A stretch of 59,622 bases of DNA from Fimbriimonadaceae bacterium (GTDB lineage Bacteria; Armatimonadota; Fimbriimonadia; Fimbriimonadales; Fimbriimonadaceae), in the NCBI GenBank assembly GCA_040081075.1, contig JBEBHJ010000014.1:1-59622 (forward strand). Reading direction: 5' to 3'. Under the pieces are notes generated by a model that was not told where the DNA came from, ran no database searches, and saw nothing but the letters and a program-made list of their open reading frames with translations. Position 1 is the stretch's first letter. Every line of letters starts with the position of its first letter. A program made the translations under genes and the position numbers. Below, in pieces: positions 2,414 to 59,622 of the stretch.

Positions 2414-3209
2414 GGTGTCGAAGGAACCCAAGGGGTTGGGGAAGATACAGGCCCCAAAGCCCGCGGCTGTCTGCACCGCAATTGCTTTGTTTGGTGCCGC
2501 TGGTGTCGGAATCGCCCTGGCAAAGCAGCCACCCCGAGAAGTTGTGATCGGGGGCTACATGACCAGCCTTCAGGGCAGAACGGACAATCAGCGACACAAC
2601 GCCTACCTTGCCCTTTTGAAGCTGAATGGAAGGGTAGTTAAGCCGGGAGAAGTGTTCTCGTTCAACGACACCGTAGGTTCATGGAGCCGAGATAAGGGGT
2701 ATCGCCGAGCGCCCGTAAGTTACAACGGAACGTTGGTAGATGCATGGGGCGGAGGCGTCTGCCAAGCCTCAACCACGGTCTACAATGCGTCGCTATTATC
2801 TGGGCTTGAAATCGTGCGCCGGTTCCCACATGTCTTTGCGCCATCGTATTGCCCGCCCGGCCGAGACGCCGCCGTTGCTTTTGGAGGTATCGACCTCAAA
2901 GTTCGCAATCCATTTTCGTACCCAGTTAAGCTGAAGGGGGTTGTACAAGGCGATAATCTCACAGTTTCATGGGTTGCAGATGGTCGCACGACTCTTCCTA
3001 CCAGACCCACCATTTCCAGTCAAGTCATGAATTTCGAGCGGCCCGGTCATGTGGTGGTTAATCACGGAGAGACCACAAACGTTGCGCGAATTCGAAACGG
3101 GGGCAAACCCGGTTGGGAGGTAATCACCTACCGGATTTGGCCCGAACGCCGCGAGTTTATCTCGCAGGATACTTATCCCGTCATGGACCGGATAATCGAG
3201 TTCCGTTAG
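2400..3209 (+). CDS. VanW domain-containing protein (likely start GTG ~2415, giving an N-terminal TM helix)
   Basis: Has a 'GGGVCQASTTVYNASLLSGLEI' core and an N-terminal hydrophobic segment 'AAVCTAIALFGAAGVGIALA', consistent with the VanW family. Confidence 0.7.
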   Translation: MRCARVSKEPKGLGKIQAPKPAAVCTAIALFGAAGVGIALAKQPPREVVIGGYMTSLQGRTDNQRHNAYLALLKLNGRVVKPGEVFSFNDTVGSWSRDKGYRRAPVSYNGTLVDAWGGGVCQASTTVYNASLLSGLEIVRRFPHVFAPSYCPPGRDAAVAFGGIDLKVRNPFSYPVKLKGVVQGDNLTVSWVADGRTTLPTRPTISSQVMNFERPGHVVVNHGETTNVARIRNGGKPGWEVITYRIWPERREFISQDTYPVMDRIIEFR

Positions 3210-4390
3210 AACTTGATCCCATACGTGAACAGCGCCCAGAACTGATCCTTGGTCGATGCGCCGTTGAATGCCTTGATGAAGCTGCCGGGCTTAAACAGGG
3301 CAAGCTCAAGTTCAACTCGTTGACCGCGCCCCAAATCCCACTTCCCCATAAAGTTAAGCTCGCTTCCGACATCGGAGCCGGAGGATCCGGTTGGATCAAT
3401 GAAAGCGCCACCTGGACCCCGATTAATGCTGCCGCCTGGGCCATACCAACCGTCCGACTTGTCGCGGAGCGAAAACTTGTGGAAAGATACGGTGTACTCA
3501 GCGGTCTTACTTGGCTTGTAGACGGCTCCGACTTCGAAGTGATTCATGTTGCGAAGGCCCTGCATATCCGAAAGGCCATAGTGGACGTGAGCCGTTCCAT
3601 AAACCGCATCGAATCCTCGATTAGTGTTGACGTCACCGCCACCGCTCGCCGCGTTTGCTTCGAAATATACATTTGTTGTAGGGCCAGCTTTGTAAGTAGC
3701 TTTTCCATGAAGCATGAAGGTATCGAAGCGGCGCCCGTTGATTGTTCCGCGTTGAATGGCACCTTCCGCCGCATAGCTCAGCTTGTCGGAGCTTCCAGTG
3801 TATCGATGATCAAAGGTCCAGTAGTTGGCATCGCTCACCCATCGGTCTGACTTGAAATAGGCAAGGGTTTCGCCAGCGGCCCACTTAACTTGGCCGCCGA
3901 ACAGCCTCGATTGCTCGCTTCGGTTGCCAATGAATCCAACTTTGCCGGCAAACATGTCAACCTTGTTGGTCTGGAATCGGAGGAGGTCGTAAGACTTGGA
4001 ACGCTGACCGAAGTTGGATTCTTCGAATAGGCGCTTATCACCGAAGTTTAGTAGTTGACGCCCGACCGAAAACGTCCCCGAGTCGTTCTTGAAGTTAACA
4101 TAACCAAGATAGAGGTCGCTATGCATGTCCGAAAAGTTGCGGGTGGGAGTCCACGATTCGGTGTTTGCGTATTGATAGCGGAGCTTACCGCTCACCCCAT
4201 TTGGACCTTCAAAATCCGCGCCAACACGAAGTCGAGCGTCAAAGCCTGATCGGTTATCGCTCGCGGCGGAGTTCAAATCACGGTCAGTTCGTCGGTCAAA
4301 TCGTGCACGAGCTTCAATCACAGGCGCGATCTTAAACTCATTAAGAAAAAGGGCTTTGAGGTTTGCGGGCAGCATCAAAAACATGATCAC
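3206..4390 (-). CDS. outer-membrane beta-barrel protein (alginate-export/porin-like), hypothetical
   Basis: 394 aa with an N-terminal hydrophobic leader, alternating amphipathic strands, many Gly/Tyr/aromatic girdles and a C-terminal '...FTYGIKF' terminal Phe typical of OMPs. Confidence 0.5.
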   Translation of the reverse strand: MIMFLMLPANLKALFLNEFKIAPVIEARARFDRRTDRDLNSAASDNRSGFDARLRVGADFEGPNGVSGKLRYQYANTESWTPTRNFSDMHSDLYLGYVNFKNDSGTFSVGRQLLNFGDKRLFEESNFGQRSKSYDLLRFQTNKVDMFAGKVGFIGNRSEQSRLFGGQVKWAAGETLAYFKSDRWVSDANYWTFDHRYTGSSDKLSYAAEGAIQRGTINGRRFDTFMLHGKATYKAGPTTNVYFEANAASGGGDVNTNRGFDAVYGTAHVHYGLSDMQGLRNMNHFEVGAVYKPSKTAEYTVSFHKFSLRDKSDGWYGPGGSINRGPGGAFIDPTGSSGSDVGSELNFMGKWDLGRGQRVELELALFKPGSFIKAFNGASTKDQFWALFTYGIKF

Positions 4391-19525: not shown

Positions 19526-19564
<39 letters not shown>

Positions 19565-19570
19565 GTGAGC

Positions 19571-20701
19571 ATGGGAAAAAGGCTTTCAATCGCTGTGGCG
19601 TTTCTCTTAGCGATTCTCGGATTCGCACATCCAAAACAAGTCAGTGGACCCACTATCCAAATTCCGGCCGGAGGTGGGCCAATGCCGAATTACTTTAGCG
19701 GCACAAACTGTCGAGCGAGTGGAAGTGCTCAACTGGGTAGCGGTGTCGAGCACGCGGAGCTTTATTTAATTGGCAATGGTGTAGCGACACTTGTCGCTTC
19801 CTTTGTCAGTGATGACGAGCAGTTGCCTATGTCCATTAGCCTGGCCGCGATGTTTGATTCAAGTCACTACTCGCCGGGAACGACACTCTCGGTGAAGTTG
19901 TCCGTAAAGTGTGCGAATATTGCCCAGCCGTACGTATTGACCGCCGGGTCAGTGCCAGTTAAGAATAGGCTTATTGTTTATGAATATCCCGATCCCAATA
20001 TAGCTCCCGTTGGAACCATTATCGCTGGTCATATGGCCAACAAAAATTACACGGTGTATGGCACCGGGAATTCTCTGTTTTGGTCTGCCCAGACCTATCT
20101 CGGTGACTTAAGCGGTGCGACCGCAAGTGTCTGTAGCACGCACGGCAACGTGCCGTTTCATTGGAGTGGAACAAATGACAATATTTACCCCACGTCAAAT
20201 CCCTATAACTACTTAGCCTATAGAACATCACAGATAGGCTCAACCTCCGCCCCAAATGGGTTGCCGCCATTTAACTCGGGCCAGCCGCCACTCAACTTTC
20301 TGCACCTGCTAGGATGCTTATGCGGTCAAAATCCAATCTTTTTGCTTGGGGCAACGTATCCTGGGGACTGGGCCTATCCTAACTCAGTTATTCAAGACCA
20401 ATGCTACTTGGGGTATCGGCCCCTCATCAGCACTGAGCAGGCAGATGAACACGCAGAGTTCATCTGGTCAAGGTTAGCGGCAGGTAAGAACATGAGTCAA
20501 ATCGTGGTCGATATTGATGACGCTATAGACAACTATCCCTACCTCTTTTTATGTTGGGAAACGTATCAAGACTATGAGAACCACAATGAGCAATACATGG
20601 TTGCCGACGACTGGAAAGTTTATGGTGATCCTTGCATGAGAATGAAAGGGGTGTGGTGTCCATGGAGTCCCCCCATCAATGATTGGAAGCGGCAAATCTA
20701 A
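19571..20701 (+). CDS. secreted Cys-containing protein of unknown function, paralog A1 (signal peptide MGKRLSIAVAFLLAILGFAHP); possible caspase-fold-like His/Cys dyad
   Basis: ORF 19484..20701 with a probable start at 19571 just after the TATAAT. It is homologous to ORF 39494..40522 in blocks ('GTNCR.SG', 'AMFDSSH', 'THG', 'NP.NYL..RT.Q.GS', 'PPLNF.HLL.C.CG'). Confidence 0.65.
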   Translation: MGKRLSIAVAFLLAILGFAHPKQVSGPTIQIPAGGGPMPNYFSGTNCRASGSAQLGSGVEHAELYLIGNGVATLVASFVSDDEQLPMSISLAAMFDSSHYSPGTTLSVKLSVKCANIAQPYVLTAGSVPVKNRLIVYEYPDPNIAPVGTIIAGHMANKNYTVYGTGNSLFWSAQTYLGDLSGATASVCSTHGNVPFHWSGTNDNIYPTSNPYNYLAYRTSQIGSTSAPNGLPPFNSGQPPLNFLHLLGCLCGQNPIFLLGATYPGDWAYPNSVIQDQCYLGYRPLISTEQADEHAEFIWSRLAAGKNMSQIVVDIDDAIDNYPYLFLCWETYQDYENHNEQYMVADDWKVYGDPCMRMKGVWCPWSPPINDWKRQI

Positions 20702-21660
20702 TGAAATCACAACTATTTGTCGGACTCGTGTTAATACTCTCGGTAGCCAACGCGTCGGCGCAGTTGAACGATGACGAGATCAAATCCCGAGTTCGATTCT
20801 ATGCGGACAAACTTGGAATCGAATTGCATGGGCCCGGAATCGCTACGGAGTCAAGCGTACAATCATTCCGCAGAGTTTATTTTGGTCAATTGAGTTGTTC
20901 CATCCGCAAAACGGATGGAACGCTGGTGGTGCTTTGGGTTGGTCAACAGGTTGAACAAGCCGACTTAGGTGCTGAAGACTTTGGGGATGACGAAGCCGCA
21001 TGGTCGCTAGCAGAGGGGATTCTTCGGACGCTCGAACTCGATGAGGGCCGATTCCGGGGGAAGATCATATGGGAAGATGCAAAGGGGCCGGTTGGGGTGA
21101 ATGAGTGTCCCTACGTATCCTGTTCATTTGTTCCCAAGCCATACGGCTATAAGGTTGCCGGCGGAAATTCCGTTGAGATCGCGTTTCGGCGCCGGGATGG
21201 TGCCTTGTTTCGTGTGAGTTCCGGTACGCCTTTTACCTACGAGCGGCCGAATATCCAAATCACCGAAGAACAAGCTAAAGCGGTCGCAATCCGGGAGTAT
21301 GGGGGCGAACCAGGGGATTGGCACGTATCGGAGCCGTTTTACACGACGGGTGTAAACCCCTATGTTTCCGATGAAATCCGGCGGATGGCCGAAAATCGCG
21401 TAATGCGACTTTGCCTTAGCGTCGGCTCGCCATTTGGAAAGGTTACGGTTGATACAGTTAAGGGCACGCTGGTCTACAAGGCGGCTCCGCCTTTGGCTAT
21501 CCCCACCAAACCTAAACTTCCAAAGCCAGCGGTCGCGGCCCAAACCACACCGGATGTTGCAGTTACGCCGACACCAAGCAGATTGCCCTTAATACTTGGA
21601 AGTATTGCCGGGATTTTGGCGTTCGGTTACTTCTACACCTGGCTCCGGAAGCGCCAATAG
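20701..21660 (+). CDS. PepSY-like domain protein with signal peptide and C-terminal TM anchor, paralog B1; start overlaps the A1 stop (TAATG)
   Basis: 'MKSQLFVGLVLILSVANASA' signal. 'YERPNIQITEEQAKAVAIREYGG' is a PepSY-like motif, also present in ORF 40504..41403 as 'YEQPNIRVTTSEARGIAEWYLGH'. The C-terminal 'LPLILGSIAGILAFGYFYTWLRKRQ' is an anchor. Confidence 0.55.
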   Translation: MKSQLFVGLVLILSVANASAQLNDDEIKSRVRFYADKLGIELHGPGIATESSVQSFRRVYFGQLSCSIRKTDGTLVVLWVGQQVEQADLGAEDFGDDEAAWSLAEGILRTLELDEGRFRGKIIWEDAKGPVGVNECPYVSCSFVPKPYGYKVAGGNSVEIAFRRRDGALFRVSSGTPFTYERPNIQITEEQAKAVAIREYGGEPGDWHVSEPFYTTGVNPYVSDEIRRMAENRVMRLCLSVGSPFGKVTVDTVKGTLVYKAAPPLAIPTKPKLPKPAVAAQTTPDVAVTPTPSRLPLILGSIAGILAFGYFYTWLRKRQ

Positions 21661-21737: not shown

Positions 21738-23690
21738 ATGCGCCTTGACCGACTCGCAAAATTCGCTTGGTTTGTTTTGGGGTGGACTTTGCTCACCATC
21801 GTTTGGGGAGCTTTCGTTCGGCTCAGCTTCTCGGGCGATGGGTGCGGAAGCCATTGGCCTGGTTGCAACGGCCAGCTAATCCCCTCGCTGAAAAGCGCAA
21901 AGGAGATTATTGAATACTCTCACCGATTGACCAGCGCGGTAGATGGTCTGCTGATTCTGGCCTTAGTTGCTCTGGCGTTCCTTCGCAGAGCCACTAATCC
22001 CCACGCTCTAAAAGCCAGCCTGATCGCTCTCCTGTTTGTCACCTTCGAAGTAATCATCGGGCGTGGGCTTGTCAAATTCGGTTGGGTGGCCTACGACCAA
22101 TCGTCCGAACGCGCGGTGGTCCTAGGTGTCCATCTCGCTAATACCTTTGTGTTAGTGGGAGCCCTCGCCCTTGCTGCCGCTTGGCTCTCGGGAATGCCTC
22201 GACCCCGTTGGAAAGGGCAAGGTGCGATGGGTTGGGCGCTCGTTTTTGGCATTCTTGGGCTCCTGGTGTTAGGCATAAGCGGCGCGATTACCTCGCTCGG
22301 CGATAAGCTGTTTCCGGTTGGGTCGACTCAAGAGGCAATTCAGGGAGCGTTGGACAGTTCGTCTCATTTTCTGGTTCGCCTCAGGATTTTGCATCCGCTC
22401 ATCGCGGTCTCGGTTGGTGTTTATCTGGTGCTGATCACCGGCTTGCTCACGCACATGAGGAAGAGCGCGCTTGTTGCCGAACTTTCAAAATGGGTTGCCG
22501 GGCTTTTTGCGGCCCAAATTGCAATCGGCTTGTTGAACAAGTTCCTGCTTGCCCCAACGTCGCTTTCGCTCGTCCACCTCTTGGTCGCAGATGCCGTTTG
22601 GATTTCGTTTGTTGTGTGGGGCTTCGCCTGTGTAGCCGAGGGCGTGGAACGAGCGGAGCAAGTTGCCCCCCCTACGGAAGACCTGGGTCGCGCGACTTAC
22701 AAGGATTACCTGGTTCTTACGAAACCTCGGGTTATTAGCCTGCTTCTTTTCACGACCCTTACTGCGCTGTTTGCGGCTTCCGGGGGCAAGCCTGGCTTCG
22801 TCCTGTTCCTTGCGGTCGCCGTTGGTGGGTACATGGCCGCCGGAGCTGCAAATGCCATTAACATGGTGATAGATCGTGATATCGATGCTTCGATGAAGCG
22901 AACGGCCTCCCGACCAACCGTCACCCAGAAGATCCCTTCGGGTCATGCCCTCTATTTCGCGTTCGGCCTGGCCCTGCTCTCCTTTGCGTTGCTTTGGGCG
23001 GCAGCGAACTTGCTTACGGCGATGTTAGCGCTCGCTGGATTGGCTTTCTACGTCGTTGTCTACACGCTCATGCTCAAGCGAAGAACTTGGCACAATATTG
23101 TCATAGGCGGAGCAGCGGGTGCGTTCCCACCTCTCGTGGGTTGGGCGGCGGCCACTAATGAGCTCAGCCCCCTCGCTTGGATTCTTTTTGGAATCATATT
23201 TGTGTGGACGCCTGTTCACTTTTGGGCTCTGGCGATCATGATAAAAGATGATTATGCGAAAGCCAACATCCCCATGTTGCCAGTTGTTCATGGTGAACGT
23301 GCCACCGTCATCCAGATTGTCATCTACGGAGTTGTTACCGCCGTGGTGTCTGTTCTACCGGTGTTTATGCATCCCGCGCACGGGCCTGGCGTAGCCCAAC
23401 TCTATCTGTGGAGCGCAGTCGTGCTGAACTTGATTCTATTGGTCCGATGTGTTCAGCTTTACATCACTACTGATCGACCCCACGCATTGAAGCTCTATAA
23501 ATTCTCGATGCTGTATTTGGCCCTACTTTTCCTCATTTTTGCAATTGATTGCGCGATTCCTTCTGGGGGTCGTGCTTCGTCAACACAGACAACGCTTCGT
23601 CATGGTAGGCTATTAGGCGGCTCGGATGTGGATATCCAGCCGGGGTTTGCAATGAAAAGCAAGGAGTGCGTTTATGGCTCAGTTATTTAA
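21738..23690 (+). CDS. ctaAB: fused heme A synthase (CtaA/COX15-like) and protoheme IX farnesyltransferase (CtaB/CyoE)
   Basis: The N-terminal half has 'GAFVRLSFSGDGCGSHWPGCNG' and multi-TM helices with His residues. The C-terminal half has 'LTKPRVISLL', 'NMVIDRDIDASMKRTASRP' and 'WTPVHFWALAI', UbiA-family heme O synthase motifs. Confidence 0.8.
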   Translation: MRLDRLAKFAWFVLGWTLLTIVWGAFVRLSFSGDGCGSHWPGCNGQLIPSLKSAKEIIEYSHRLTSAVDGLLILALVALAFLRRATNPHALKASLIALLFVTFEVIIGRGLVKFGWVAYDQSSERAVVLGVHLANTFVLVGALALAAAWLSGMPRPRWKGQGAMGWALVFGILGLLVLGISGAITSLGDKLFPVGSTQEAIQGALDSSSHFLVRLRILHPLIAVSVGVYLVLITGLLTHMRKSALVAELSKWVAGLFAAQIAIGLLNKFLLAPTSLSLVHLLVADAVWISFVVWGFACVAEGVERAEQVAPPTEDLGRATYKDYLVLTKPRVISLLLFTTLTALFAASGGKPGFVLFLAVAVGGYMAAGAANAINMVIDRDIDASMKRTASRPTVTQKIPSGHALYFAFGLALLSFALLWAAANLLTAMLALAGLAFYVVVYTLMLKRRTWHNIVIGGAAGAFPPLVGWAAATNELSPLAWILFGIIFVWTPVHFWALAIMIKDDYAKANIPMLPVVHGERATVIQIVIYGVVTAVVSVLPVFMHPAHGPGVAQLYLWSAVVLNLILLVRCVQLYITTDRPHALKLYKFSMLYLALLFLIFAIDCAIPSGGRASSTQTTLRHGRLLGGSDVDIQPGFAMKSKECVYGSVI

Positions 23691-39304: not shown

Positions 39305-39373
39305 CGCTATTCTAGCCGTCAAGCGTTGCCTTATTAGTAGACATTTAAAGATCTTTTGCAAAAGTCTATTCGT

Positions 39374-39385
39374 CTTTCTTTCTTT
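39374..39385. repeat. (CTTT)3 tract, short version of the 19526-19557 microsatellite, in a homologous promoter
   Basis: 'TTTTGCAAAAGTCT...CTTTCTTTCTTT-G-CTTATAAT' parallels 19506-19564. Confidence 0.8.
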
Positions 39386-39388
39386 GCT

Positions 39389-39394
39389 TATAAT
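39389..39394 (+). promoter_or_regulatory. TATAAT -10-like box 7 nt upstream of the GTG at 39402
   Basis: Same geometry as copy 1. Confidence 0.3.
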
Positions 39395-39493
39395 AGAGCT
39401 TGTGTTGCGAGCACGCCTAAGCATTTTTACATTTCTGCTGGTTCTTGCTTGTAGGATCATCTGCCAGCCGGCAGGCTGGGGATATAGTTTCCT

Positions 39494-40522
39494 GTGGGCG
39501 GGACTACAATGCCCTTCTACTTCGCAGGGACCAATTGCAGGGGATCGGGCGCGAACTTCGGGTTGCCCATTGAGGCGGCCGAACTCTATATCAGGGATGT
39601 TAATACGAACGAGGTTGAACTCGTCAATTGGTTCGATTCGGATGGCACGAACTACCCTTTGTCGATCGGCTTGAGTGCGATGTTTGATTCGAGCCACTTT
39701 GTCCCAGGTCATTCGGTGAGAATGGAGTTCTGGGTCTATCCCAGAGACTGGGAAGGTGTGCCCCTTCCACCAGGGGAATCAGCGCCTGTTGTGATCAAGA
39801 ATAAGCTCATGATGTTTGAGATTTCCGATCCAAACTTCACGCCCGACCCATCCGTGTTCGTGAATTCGACGATGACGGGTCAAAACTACACGCTTGCTCT
39901 ACACAATGCCGATGGATGGTCGGCCACGACTTATGAAAATGAAATGATCGGAACGAATGCGGTTATGGTGGCAACTCACGGGTACCCGGAAAAGCACGAT
40001 GACGACGCCTCGCACTGGATTTACCACACCTATAACCCTCTCAACTACCTTTCATTCCGCACTACTCAAGTCGGATCACCCGGCCCTTGGGGAGTACTCT
40101 TGCCTCCTTACAATCCAACAACGAACCCTCCCCTCAATTTCGTTCACTTGCTCACGTGCTCATGTGGCACGCAGATTGATCAGTTTGCAACCGGAGCCCT
40201 CTATCCGGGGCGTAACATCTACGTTCCGACGATTGAGGACCAAGCAATCGTCGGCTATGTTCCACTCATTTATATAGCCGATTTACAAACCCACGCAGAT
40301 CTAGTCTGGAACCCGTTAAAGGCTGGAAAGACCGTTGGCAAAATGCGAGAGGCACTACAAGTTTGGCTTGGTTCTCATCCTAATTTTCACGTTATTGGTG
40401 CAACAGGAGACCGCCAAATGGAGATTGCCGACCTTGCGATAGCTGGAGATCCGTTCACTAGGATCAAATCCGTTTTTACTGGTACGCACTCAAATCCAAT
40501 ATCATGGCACCGCCCATTATGA
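39494..40522 (+). CDS. paralog A2 of the secreted Cys-containing protein; signal-peptide-like segment is encoded upstream in another frame (39402..39490)
   Basis: Homology to A1 throughout. The GTG-started frame at 39402 encodes 'VLRARLSIFTFLLVLACRIICQPAGW...' and a TAG at 39485 closes the A2 frame upstream of 39494. Confidence 0.6.
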   Translation: MGGTTMPFYFAGTNCRGSGANFGLPIEAAELYIRDVNTNEVELVNWFDSDGTNYPLSIGLSAMFDSSHFVPGHSVRMEFWVYPRDWEGVPLPPGESAPVVIKNKLMMFEISDPNFTPDPSVFVNSTMTGQNYTLALHNADGWSATTYENEMIGTNAVMVATHGYPEKHDDDASHWIYHTYNPLNYLSFRTTQVGSPGPWGVLLPPYNPTTNPPLNFVHLLTCSCGTQIDQFATGALYPGRNIYVPTIEDQAIVGYVPLIYIADLQTHADLVWNPLKAGKTVGKMREALQVWLGSHPNFHVIGATGDRQMEIADLAIAGDPFTRIKSVFTGTHSNPISWHRPL

Positions 40523-41403
40523 TTACTTCTATTCTCACTACCCTGACAGCATCACTCCAGATCGGACCCGATGAAGCTTTGCGAAAAGCTGGGCAATATG
40601 CACGCGTCCTAGATCGGCCATTTGACGCGACACCTGAATCCGTTGAGCGACATGAGCGCGTCATAAGCGTTTCGTTCGGTGCTGATGAACTCATTGTATT
40701 AACTTTTAGGGGTGATTTGGTAAGTTACAGTCGGCTAGAGCGTGCCTTAGAAGCTGACATTCGCGGCACGCCTCGCTTTAGAAGCGATTCGGATGCCTTC
40801 ATTCGGGCGCAGGAGGTGATGGAACAGTTTGATTGCCCGCCAAACCTAACTCCTCGTTCGGTAGAGTGGCGCCCGTATCCATCTCGAGTTGGATCATTTG
40901 TTAACTCGATTTCGTGCTATTTTGTTCAGAACCCCCACGGTTATGCCACCTCAGTTGGAAACCATATGATTGTTGGATTACACCCCCGAACCGGGCAGGT
41001 TCTTTCGCTCAGTATGCTGGCTGATTGGAACTATGAACAACCCAACATCCGCGTGACCACGAGCGAAGCGCGTGGAATCGCAGAATGGTATCTGGGGCAT
41101 TCAGTCCAGGGGTGGCATACGGACCTTGAGTGGTTCTCACACGACGCTAGCGAGGTGCCTCCAGAAGTAAGGACCCTTTACGCCGCGAAAAAATCTCGCC
41201 TATGCTATTTTGTGAAAAGCGCGGCTGGCGCAGTGGTCATTATTGACTCTACCAACGGAGATGTGGTTAGGCACATGGTGCCCGCAAGCATCCCCTCGCC
41301 GGTGCCGTTTGGGCGGTACTACGCGATTGCAGCGGCCGTATGCCACGCCAGCGGCTTTGCGGCTGTGTCAATGCGCCCGCTTTCTCGATACCGCGTGCGC
41401 TAG
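40519..41403 (+). CDS. paralog B2, PepSY-like domain protein (ATGA overlap with the A2 stop; alternative start 40504)
   Basis: 'NYEQPNIRVTTSEARGIAEWYL' and 'VIIDSTNGDVVRHMVP' parallel B1's 'TYERPNIQITEEQAKAVAIREYGG' and 'VTVDTVKGTLVYKAAP'. Confidence 0.5.
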   Translation: MITSILTTLTASLQIGPDEALRKAGQYARVLDRPFDATPESVERHERVISVSFGADELIVLTFRGDLVSYSRLERALEADIRGTPRFRSDSDAFIRAQEVMEQFDCPPNLTPRSVEWRPYPSRVGSFVNSISCYFVQNPHGYATSVGNHMIVGLHPRTGQVLSLSMLADWNYEQPNIRVTTSEARGIAEWYLGHSVQGWHTDLEWFSHDASEVPPEVRTLYAAKKSRLCYFVKSAAGAVVIIDSTNGDVVRHMVPASIPSPVPFGRYYAIAAAVCHASGFAAVSMRPLSRYRVR

Positions 41404-42627: not shown

Positions 42628-43476
42628 ATGGACGCCAACCGCACCCAAATCCTGAACAGCGATCCCAATCGTACGATCATGGGCGCGGCTCCTACTCTGA
42701 ACGCAACGGTCACGATCAAGCCGATCCAGTGCCCGGTTTGTAAAACGTTCAACCCGGCCGGGTTGATGTTCTGCAAGGAGTGCGGTTTGATCTTTGACCG
42801 TGCCCTCCCCGATGACGCCTTTGGAGCACCAACTGTCCTTTTGCCGATGCTGGTGGATTCCAATGGCCGAGAGCATCCGATTCGCCCTGGTGAGAGTCTC
42901 ATTGGCCGCGAAGCCGACATCATGCTGAACGACACTCAGGTTTCCCGGCGTCACGCCCGGTTGGTGTCTTCCGATGGCGGATTTACCCTCGAAGACCTCG
43001 GGAGCACGAATGGCACCAGAGTGAACGGCAACCCTCTCACGGTAGGACAGGTTCAGCCGATCAATCCTGGAGACACCCTGAGCTTTGGGAGTTTCGAATG
43101 CAAGCTGCACCTACCCGGCGGAGGATTGGGGGCAACCCAGGCGTTTTCTTCCAACAAAACGGCGGCGATCGCGGCGGCCCCAACAATTGAAACGGCTGTT
43201 GCAAAGTTGGTCGGAGCCGACCAAACGTGGCCACTTCAAAGTGGCGCGAATACTTTCGGTCGGCGCGCCGAAAACGATGTCGTGATTGCCGATGCCTATG
43301 TTTCGGGGAAGCACGGAGTCATCGAAATCACCGAGGATGCCGCCTTCCTTACGGATATCGGAAGCACAAATGGCACGATGCTGAACGATGCCAAACTCGC
43401 GCCGAACATGCGAACCGCCATGAGAGCGGATGATGTCATCCGACTTGGCAGTATCGAATTGCGAATCGAACGCTAA
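42628..43476 (+). CDS. zinc-ribbon plus tandem FHA domain protein
   Basis: 'CPVCKTFNPAGLMFCKECG', then two FHA cores ('IGREADIMLNDTQVSRRHARL...GSTNGTRVNG' and 'FGRRAENDVVIADAYVSGKHGVI...GSTNGTMLND'). Confidence 0.75.
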   Translation: MDANRTQILNSDPNRTIMGAAPTLNATVTIKPIQCPVCKTFNPAGLMFCKECGLIFDRALPDDAFGAPTVLLPMLVDSNGREHPIRPGESLIGREADIMLNDTQVSRRHARLVSSDGGFTLEDLGSTNGTRVNGNPLTVGQVQPINPGDTLSFGSFECKLHLPGGGLGATQAFSSNKTAAIAAAPTIETAVAKLVGADQTWPLQSGANTFGRRAENDVVIADAYVSGKHGVIEITEDAAFLTDIGSTNGTMLNDAKLAPNMRTAMRADDVIRLGSIELRIER

Positions 43477-59336: not shown

Positions 59337-59466
59337 GTGACAGCGGAACTGTGCATCTTGAAGCTAGGTCACGTTCGAGTCTAAAGTTTTGCAAGGGAAG
59401 TTCTCTGCCAAAGCGCCACACACCCAGGGGGATTGTATGGCGCGAGTGCGCGCAGCTCACAAAAGT

Positions 59467-59571
59467 CTTGTTGGGGTTGAAAAACGCTTTGTTGAGGCGC
59501 AAGAACGCCTTGTTGGGGTTGAAGAAAGCGATTTTGGGGCGCAAGAAGTCTCTGTTGAGGCGCAAAAACGC
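59467..59571. repeat. degenerate 21-nt tandem repeat, 5 copies (42-nt super-period), at the window 3' edge
   Basis: Units are cttgttggggttgaaaaacgc / tttgttgaggcgcaagaacgc / cttgttggggttgaagaaagc / gattttggggcgcaagaagtc / tctgttgaggcgcaaaaacgc. Confidence 0.8.
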
Positions 59572-59622
59572 CAGCTCAGATCGGCATTTTAGGTTCCAAA
59601 TAGGCATAATATGGGCCCGCAA

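Follow-up and report, generated by a model that had tools for sequence, protein, structure and literature searches.

The window analysed here, a 59,622-bp contig from a Fimbriimonadaceae (Armatimonadota) metagenome-assembled genome, holds two diverged copies of a two-gene module, A1-B1 and A2-B2. What do these paired genes encode, do their products act together, and what does a microsatellite do in front of A1? A first-pass annotation had read A as a secreted protein with a caspase-fold-like His/Cys dyad and B as a translationally coupled, PepSY-like partner. We found both modules where that annotation had placed them, save for the start of A2, and the two A proteins and the two B proteins each align as paralogs: A1 and A2 share 37% identity over their whole length (E 1e-55), and B1 and B2 share 27% (E 2e-21). 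Profile scans detected no third A or B copy in the 59.6-kb window. Relatives of A on other contigs, labeled L001-L025, provided the material for comparison.

We consider it reasonably probable that the modules encode an exported enzyme of the clan CD fold and a PepSY-bearing binding partner, stochastically switched by repeat slippage. Each module would form a bicistronic operon, often translationally coupled. A would be a Sec-exported protein that joins an N-terminal Ig-like domain to a caspase-hemoglobinase (clan CD) domain with a His-Gly...Cys dyad, and its most likely activity would be that of a periplasmic or surface-located cysteine endopeptidase. B would be an exported partner made at levels matching A, composed of three small alpha+beta modules of which the last is a PepSY domain, and anchored in the membrane through a C-terminal helix or, sometimes in short forms, through a lipobox; most likely it would bind A as a chaperone, inhibitor or tether. 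Expression would be turned on and off by slipped-strand mispairing at repeats that either occupy the promoter spacer or follow the start codon and precede the signal peptide. The paralogy, synteny, predicted fold, dyad conservation, family-level PepSY signal and repeat enrichment that underlie this proposal are demonstrated below.

The A and B proteins

In order to characterize the fold of A, we predicted the structure of A1 with AlphaFold2 from a 17-sequence alignment (mean pLDDT 82.7, pTM 0.81). The model starts with a signal helix, continues with a beta-sandwich at about residues 36-130, and ends in an alternating beta/alpha domain whose core sheet is packed into an alpha/beta/alpha sandwich; fold comparison places it closest to clan CD members. 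Across all clan CD families, the catalytic dyad lies on the loops that follow strand beta3 (L3; His, usually His-Gly) and the hydrophobic strand beta4 (L4; Cys) (PMC4357240). The A1 model has this same order, with H191-G192 after strand 185-189 and C249 after the hydrophobic strand 243-247, the third and fourth core strands. The first-pass annotation had estimated the His and Cys near nucleotides 20141 and 20315, and the actual codons are 20141-20143 (H191) and 20315-20317 (C249). Both residues are invariant in the 17-sequence alignment. When 158 relatives were aligned with MAFFT, the two positions were the most conserved columns (Cys249 in 156/156, His191 in 156/157), and P233, W171, P264, D96 (kept in 153/155), N235, N132, G223 and S97 were also strongly kept. 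D96 and S97 sit in the N-terminal sandwich, which suggests that the sandwich is probably part of the functional unit. The A proteins carry N-terminal hydrophobic signal sequences.

Sequence searches gave a different picture. A1 and A2 had no significant match in Pfam, NCBIfam, PADLOC or PHROGs, and neither the A profile (17 relatives) nor the A consensus (158 relatives) found more than chance matches among PDB sequences, in agreement with the earlier statement that the proteins belong to no obvious named family. In Pfam the consensus matched only a bacterial Ig domain, below threshold and within its N-terminal portion. A matched no CHAT model in Pfam (E up to 10) and, with its profile or consensus, no PDB sequence; its likeness to CHAT proteases is structural only. 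An hhalign comparison of the 158-sequence profile with human caspase-3 returned a misaligned, uninformative hit at 0.9% probability. Pfam assigned A1 and A2 to no family while structure prediction and fold comparison gave a clan CD-like fold: the caspase-fold-like claim is supported by the predicted fold, by the order of the dyad after beta3 and beta4 and by its conservation, and no sequence method connects A with a clan CD family.

The A family is large. A word-indexed search retrieved 16 relatives, whereas an exhaustive profile search retrieved 629 cluster representatives (50% identity) at E up to 1e-3, 204 of them at E up to 1e-30. Relatives listed at full length have about 330-440 amino acids (aa), mean identity in the family is about 30-38%, and genomes hold several diverged copies of the module. 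All named sources are Armatimonadota (Fimbriimonadaceae, Fimbriimonadales, Chthonomonas, Chthonomonadaceae and "Armatimonadota bacterium"). We rejected a mobile-element origin, as no A relatives were found among IMG/VR contigs, GenBank phages or PLSDB plasmids.

The boundaries of the two A genes required correction. For A1, the longest mechanical open reading frame (ORF), from TTG 19484, was discarded: it reads through the promoter and the repeat, and ATG 19571 matches the deposited annotation, whose protein is the top database match of A1. For A2, the earlier extent of 39494-40522 proved to be a truncated view of a gene that starts at about 39402 (GTG, 7 nt after TATAAT 39389-39394); GTG 39494 is merely the first start codon past an in-frame TAG, and A2 is deposited as a 342-aa protein (ABL949_05325). 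From GTG 39402 a signal-peptide-like reading (MLRARLSIFTFLLVLACRIICQPAGWG...) runs in another frame than the mature enzyme, the shift occurring at the T run 39488-39490. L025, a near-identical contig obtained from a different sample, differs upstream in two places: a single substitution, and TTTT where the window has TTT (39488-39490). Its GTG reading is an uninterrupted protein of 373 aa in which the signal peptide continues into FPVGGTTMPFYFAGTNCR. We rejected the idea that A2 is a signal-less cytoplasmic paralog because L025 reads intact from the GTG through the signal peptide, which is in frame there and out of frame in the window. The one-base difference would make the window copy an "off" variant or a pseudogene, or else it reflects an error of assembly.

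A and B are closely linked. The A1 stop and the B1 start share 1 nt (TAATG, 20699-20703) and the A2 stop and the B2 ATG overlap by 4 nt (ATGA, 40519-40522), exactly the coupling junctions described before, with an in-frame ATG at 40504 also possible for B2. We surveyed 20 non-redundant assessable modules on 18 non-redundant contigs and found a B-family ORF immediately 3' of A in 18 of them, so the expected co-occurrence of the two genes extends beyond the window. L022 has in the B position a 276-aa exported protein with a 4-nt overlap that the B profile did not detect, and the second module of L012 was counted as uncertain for B, its downstream gene likewise escaping the B profile. Junctions range from overlaps of 1-19 nt to gaps of up to 52 nt. 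The flanking genes are unrelated and different at every locus.

B likewise bears export signals and contains a PepSY signal at the level of the family. Our B set comprised 19 proteins from loci encoding A relatives; a word-indexed B search returned B1 itself plus one other protein. An N-terminal signal sequence was present on 18 of the 19, the exception being a 5'-truncated copy, and in 12 the C-terminus consists of a low-complexity linker followed by a hydrophobic helix and then a basic tail. B1 and B2 found nothing in NCBIfam, PADLOC or PHROGs, and the B profile had no match, or only chance matches, among PDB sequences (A, B and consensus searches returned, for example, T4 gp54 and ParD2). 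PepSY matches below threshold, at 13.9-18.4 bits, came from six of the 19 homologues; in four the match fell on the YExPNIRI...IDSVTG region flagged by the first-pass annotation, and no natural B sequence reached the PF03413 gathering cut-off of 24 bits. The hidden Markov model consensus of the 19 proteins matched PF03413 at 42.6 bits (E 7.3e-11), with consensus residues 183-254 covering profile positions 1-57 of 60; it also scored 26.1 bits against DUF4901 (YcdB/YcdC repeat; cut-off 27). Modules 1 and 2 appear to have the same helix-then-strands pattern as the third, as judged from the alignment and from the low-confidence secondary structure of a pLDDT-36 model. The PepSY-like assignment of the partner is therefore supported at the family level and for the third module only, and does not extend to B1 or B2 taken alone.

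Repeats ahead of the A genes

The upstream microsatellite of A1 is real: (TTTC)8.5 at 19526-19559 is the sole microsatellite of at least 14 nt, with units of up to 6 nt, in the 59.6-kb window. A palindromic box is common to the A1 and A2 upstream regions, and A2 has only three repeat units. At A1 the palindrome contains a -35-like TTGCAA that lies 44 nt from TATAAT; this spacing rules it out as a working -35 in the assembled state, and no canonically spaced sigma-70 promoter was found on the + strand. The palindrome TTTTTGCAAAAA is likely a regulator site or a displaced -35. TATAAT lies only 6 nt from the A1 ATG, so that a leaderless or near-leaderless mRNA is implied, and the spacing suggests that A mRNAs may in general be leaderless. 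The distance of 6-7 nt between a -10-like hexamer and an A start lacking a Shine-Dalgarno sequence recurs at both window copies (19559-19573 and 39389-39404) and in L014 (~3978-4000), L017 (~83-99) and L020 (~2985-3003), with a GTG start in two cases.

Repeats are concentrated at this position in other contigs as well. In nine of 21 modules, the promoter or the 5' end of the coding region contains a microsatellite or a homopolymer, with six different units among them. We scanned 217.7 kb of non-redundant sequence, of which the 150 nt upstream of A starts make up 1.4%, and 9 of the 11 above-threshold repeats fell within these 150 nt (binomial P 1.1e-15). Repeats are thus strongly enriched immediately 5' of A genes (P about 1e-15); a survey of upstream microsatellites across genomes had been put forward before. 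The remaining two belong to the L014 array, where they precede a B-family ORF. Where the repeat lies within the coding region (L007/L013, L009 and L011), the enzyme is out of frame at the repeat length assembled, and shifting the tract by one unit, or by 1-2 bases for the homopolymer, would bring it back into frame.

Independent assemblies were compared in two pairs. L014/L015 and L007/L013 differ only at poly-C tracts, over 6.9 kb and 8.9 kb respectively; this is suggestive, though weakly so for homopolymers in short-read assemblies. The sole difference between L014 and L015 over their 6.9 kb (C9GCGG vs C10GCG) lies at 2698-2709, in a promoter-like TTGACA-N21-TACTAT site with a poly-C tract 5' of a B-family ORF.

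Competing explanations and known systems

Several observations weigh against a repeat-switched clan CD enzyme with a PepSY partner. The A fold comes from a single predicted model built on a 17-sequence alignment; Pfam searches (E up to 10) recognized neither A1 nor A2 nor the 158-sequence consensus as a clan CD family, and only 1 of 17 A members matched Peptidase_C25 (PF01364), below threshold (E 0.019). B1 and B2 had singly no PepSY or other Pfam match (E up to 10), the likeness among the three B modules was not significant in hhalign, and the B1 model, from three sequences, reached a pLDDT of only 36 and is unusable. Seven of the 19 B proteins have no C-terminal anchor and stop right after the conserved [IV]DAETG strand. 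No repeat above threshold was found in 12 of 21 modules, homopolymer length differences between assemblies can be sequencing artefacts, and the tract that differs between L014 and L015 keeps its total length.

The alternative that survives best, which we nevertheless regard as unlikely, assigns B another role: a membrane tether or activator that would keep an already active A at the surface, or a sensor whose PepSY modules bind something else. Most B members have a membrane anchor or a lipobox, as a tether would, but some short forms have neither (a lipobox is found in two of the seven). The model of the YpeB-SleB pair has an unobstructed catalytic groove, its partner acting by positioning, whereas the PepSY-containing propeptide of M4 peptidases contributes to autoinhibition (bioRxiv 10.64898/2026.06.01.729290). 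Activity could also be controlled by the N-terminal beta-sandwich of A itself, whose residues are conserved like the dyad (D96).

It is improbable, in our assessment, that the repeats are neutral or assembly-related features of AT-/GC-skewed intergenic DNA and that the operons are constitutive. Short-read assemblies are prone to errors at homopolymers and dinucleotide repeats, the L007 poly-C tract contains NN, and a repeat is missing from 12 of 21 modules; but tetra- and pentanucleotide repeats are not typical assembly artefacts, and six different units occur at one functional position. Furthermore, the other 215 kb hold no comparable repeats save the two upstream of a B-family ORF, and the three coding-region repeats each lie exactly between the start codon and the signal peptide.

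Clan CD also contains transpeptidase-type enzymes, namely glycosylphosphatidylinositol (GPI) transamidase, legumain-type ligases and PorU. By analogy, A could be a transpeptidase or sorting enzyme, and B, which has a linker, a hydrophobic helix and a basic tail, could be the substrate dedicated to it. We think this rather improbable: the seven B homologues without the C-terminal segment are still paired with A, no conserved cleavage motif precedes the B helix in the 19-protein alignment, and there is no match to NCBIfam sorting-signal models. The most elaborate form of the idea is a similarly long shot. In it, A would be a bacterial counterpart of GPI transamidase or PorU, an exported clan CD transpeptidase that cleaves the C-terminal linker-helix-basic tail of B and attaches the PepSY ectodomain to an envelope component, with the pair repeat-switched to vary the Armatimonadota surface against phages or predators. 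Least probable of all is that A is a non-catalytic caspase-like binding module or pseudo-enzyme with a structural His and Cys, since such proteins typically lose the dyad, which is kept here (His 156/157, Cys 156/156) despite a mean identity of about 30-38%.

How would an exported clan CD enzyme with a switched PepSY partner compare with known systems? Gingipains have an Ig-like domain after the catalytic domain, and a separate N-terminal prodomain controls their latency. A has no significant sequence similarity to RgpB and Kgp, the gingipains of Porphyromonas gingivalis (MEROPS C25, clan CD), and differs from them in its N-terminal Ig-like domain, in lacking the C-terminal domain of the type IX secretion system (T9SS) and in having a separate PepSY protein as partner; the title of structure 4ief mentions pro- and mature domains. 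CHAT proteases (SAVED-CHAT, Craspase TPR-CHAT and the anti-sigma factor DdvA) act in the cytoplasm as effectors of signalling or defence and are fused to sensor domains, whereas A is exported and small (about 330-440 aa), without a sensor domain or a PADLOC match.

By analogy, the closest functional precedents of A-B are the M4 PepSY/FTP propeptides and the YpeB-SleB pair. PepSY modules that are in an operon with a secreted hydrolase (YpeB-SleB) or fused to one (M4/M36 PepSY/FTP propeptides) act as chaperone and inhibitor, and YpeB, a membrane-anchored protein with three extracytoplasmic PepSY domains, both stabilises its operon partner SleB and holds it inactive (bioRxiv 10.64898/2026.06.01.729290). 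B resembles YpeB in sharing an operon with an exported enzyme, in its membrane anchor and in its three alpha+beta modules, the last matching PepSY. In contrast to YpeB, the anchor of B is C-terminal rather than N-terminal, and only one of its three modules is recognisably PepSY. Moreover, A has a predicted cysteine-peptidase fold of clan CD and is neither a lytic transglycosylase nor a metallopeptidase, and the host is a non-sporulating member of the Armatimonadota rather than Bacillus.

The repeats recall simple-sequence contingency loci. In host-adapted Neisseria, Haemophilus and Campylobacter, genes for surface or exported proteins carry homopolymers or repeats of short units between the -35 and -10 boxes or directly behind the start codon. 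The A-B modules share with them an enriched tract in the promoter spacer or 5' coding region, just past the start codon, as well as exported products and multi-copy paralogs. They differ in that their hosts are free-living environmental Armatimonadota, mostly from metagenomes, that the cargo is a protease-partner pair and that switching is here proposed from sequence. To our knowledge, repeat-driven switches are little known in free-living environmental bacteria, and our literature search found no paper linking Armatimonadota to phase variation and none describing the A-B protein pair.

Both the fold and the notion of a PepSY partner were known before. The novelty lies in the enzyme family, in a cysteine-peptidase fold paired with PepSY in trans and in the signature of contingency loci in Armatimonadota. 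The 629 clusters (50% identity) would be a sizeable addition to the caspase/gingipain superfamily, invisible to Pfam, NCBIfam and PDB sequence searches. The chaperone-inhibitor concept of PepSY, developed for metallopeptidases and SleB, would extend to a cysteine-peptidase fold with the partner in trans. Contingency loci, a hallmark of host-adapted pathogens, are suggested in free-living, mostly uncultured environmental bacteria, where the repeats would control an exported enzyme system with several diverged copies per genome.

Feature coordinates and genomic context

Features of the A1-B1 and A2-B2 modules in the window, and repeats at related modules on other contigs
Feature	Position	Strand	Description
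12-bp palindrome TTTTTGCAAAAA	19506..19517	+	5' of A1; holds -35-like TTGCAA 19509-19514
(TTTC)8.5 microsatellite	19526..19559	+	between palindrome and A1 -10 box; TRF, 100% matches; proposed slipped-strand switch
-10 box TATAAT	19559..19564	+	6 nt 5' of A1 start codon
A1	19571..20701	+	376 aa; signal peptide ~1-25, Ig-like beta-sandwich ~36-130, caspase-hemoglobinase-fold domain ~131-376 (predicted)
His191-Gly192 codons	20141..20146	+	His codon 20141-20143; putative catalytic His, loop after core strand beta3
Cys249 codon	20315..20317	+	putative catalytic nucleophile, loop after core strand beta4
B1	20701..21660	+	319 aa; signal peptide, three alpha+beta modules, Pro/Thr-rich linker, C-terminal transmembrane helix, basic tail
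B1 third module	21241..21486	+	residues ~181-262, YERPNIQITEEQAKAVA...VDTVKGTLV; PepSY-like domain; family consensus match to PF03413
B1 C-terminal membrane anchor	21580..21642	+	LPLILGSIAGILAFGYFYTWL, then RKRQ; hydropathy 1.94; predicted helix 300-318 (low confidence)
A2 promoter region	39353..39394	+	palindrome CTTTTGCAAAAG 39353-39364; short (TCTT)3 39373-39385; -10 TATAAT 39389-39394
A2	39402..40522	+	signal peptide from GTG 39402 in one frame, mature enzyme from 39494 in another
B2	40519..41403	+	ATG 40519 or alternative in-frame ATG 40504; B1-like architecture, C-terminal hydrophobic segment weaker
Repeats in or beside promoter			L014 C8; L017 G10; L020 G7; L004 (CT)10; L019 G9
Repeat directly 5' of ATG			L018 G10
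Repeats between ATG and signal peptide			L007/L013 C15-16; L009 (TC)15; L011 (TCGGT)6

Both modules of the window lie among housekeeping genes. A1-B1 is flanked on one side by accA, accD and a TfoX_N gene and on the other by a CtaA-CtaB fusion, directly 3' of B1 (21738-23690), in which one 650-aa ORF joins COX15/CtaA heme A synthase and UbiA/CtaB prenyltransferase domains. A2-B2 has genes for IMPDH and an FGGY kinase on one side and for an E1 dehydrogenase and an FHA protein on the other. The FHA protein (42628-43476), encoded 3' of A2-B2 and of the E1 dehydrogenase gene, has two FHA / Yop-YscD_cpl domains and, at its N-terminus, a CxxC...C motif resembling a zinc ribbon.

On other contigs, modules occur in arrays or with decayed copies: A-B-(A remnant)-B in L001 (7118-7399), B-A-B-B in L014 (2909-7084), A-B-A' in L019 (5299-6861) and A-B-B in L008 (2451-4623). 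These tandem arrays and decay products point to frequent local duplication and loss. In L003 (6015-7007), the B homologue 3' of A is cut by an in-frame stop and called as genes of 125 and 194 aa, and is either a pseudogene or a sequencing error.

In three contigs (L001 765-4836, L004 and L005 1327-4815), the A-B module divergently adjoins a compact seven-gene cluster whose products are a major capsid protein (Mu-like gpT / Phage_capsid_4) and small proteins without annotation; the window contains nothing like it. This cluster may be what is left of a prophage, or else an element resembling a gene-transfer agent or a satellite that carries a capsid.

In L012 (4056-4817), a typical PEP-CTERM-type protein (ending ...VTEPGTMVGLGLIGLSALRRRRSV) is encoded just 5' of an enlarged, 518-aa member of the A family, and these genomes therefore also have exosortase-type sorting signals. 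Finally, the end of the window (59463-59573) carries an imperfect tandem repeat with a period of 21/42 nt, a consensus of about AAGTCTTGTTGGGGTTGAAAAAAGCGATGTTGAGGCGCAAG and 2.3-4 copies.

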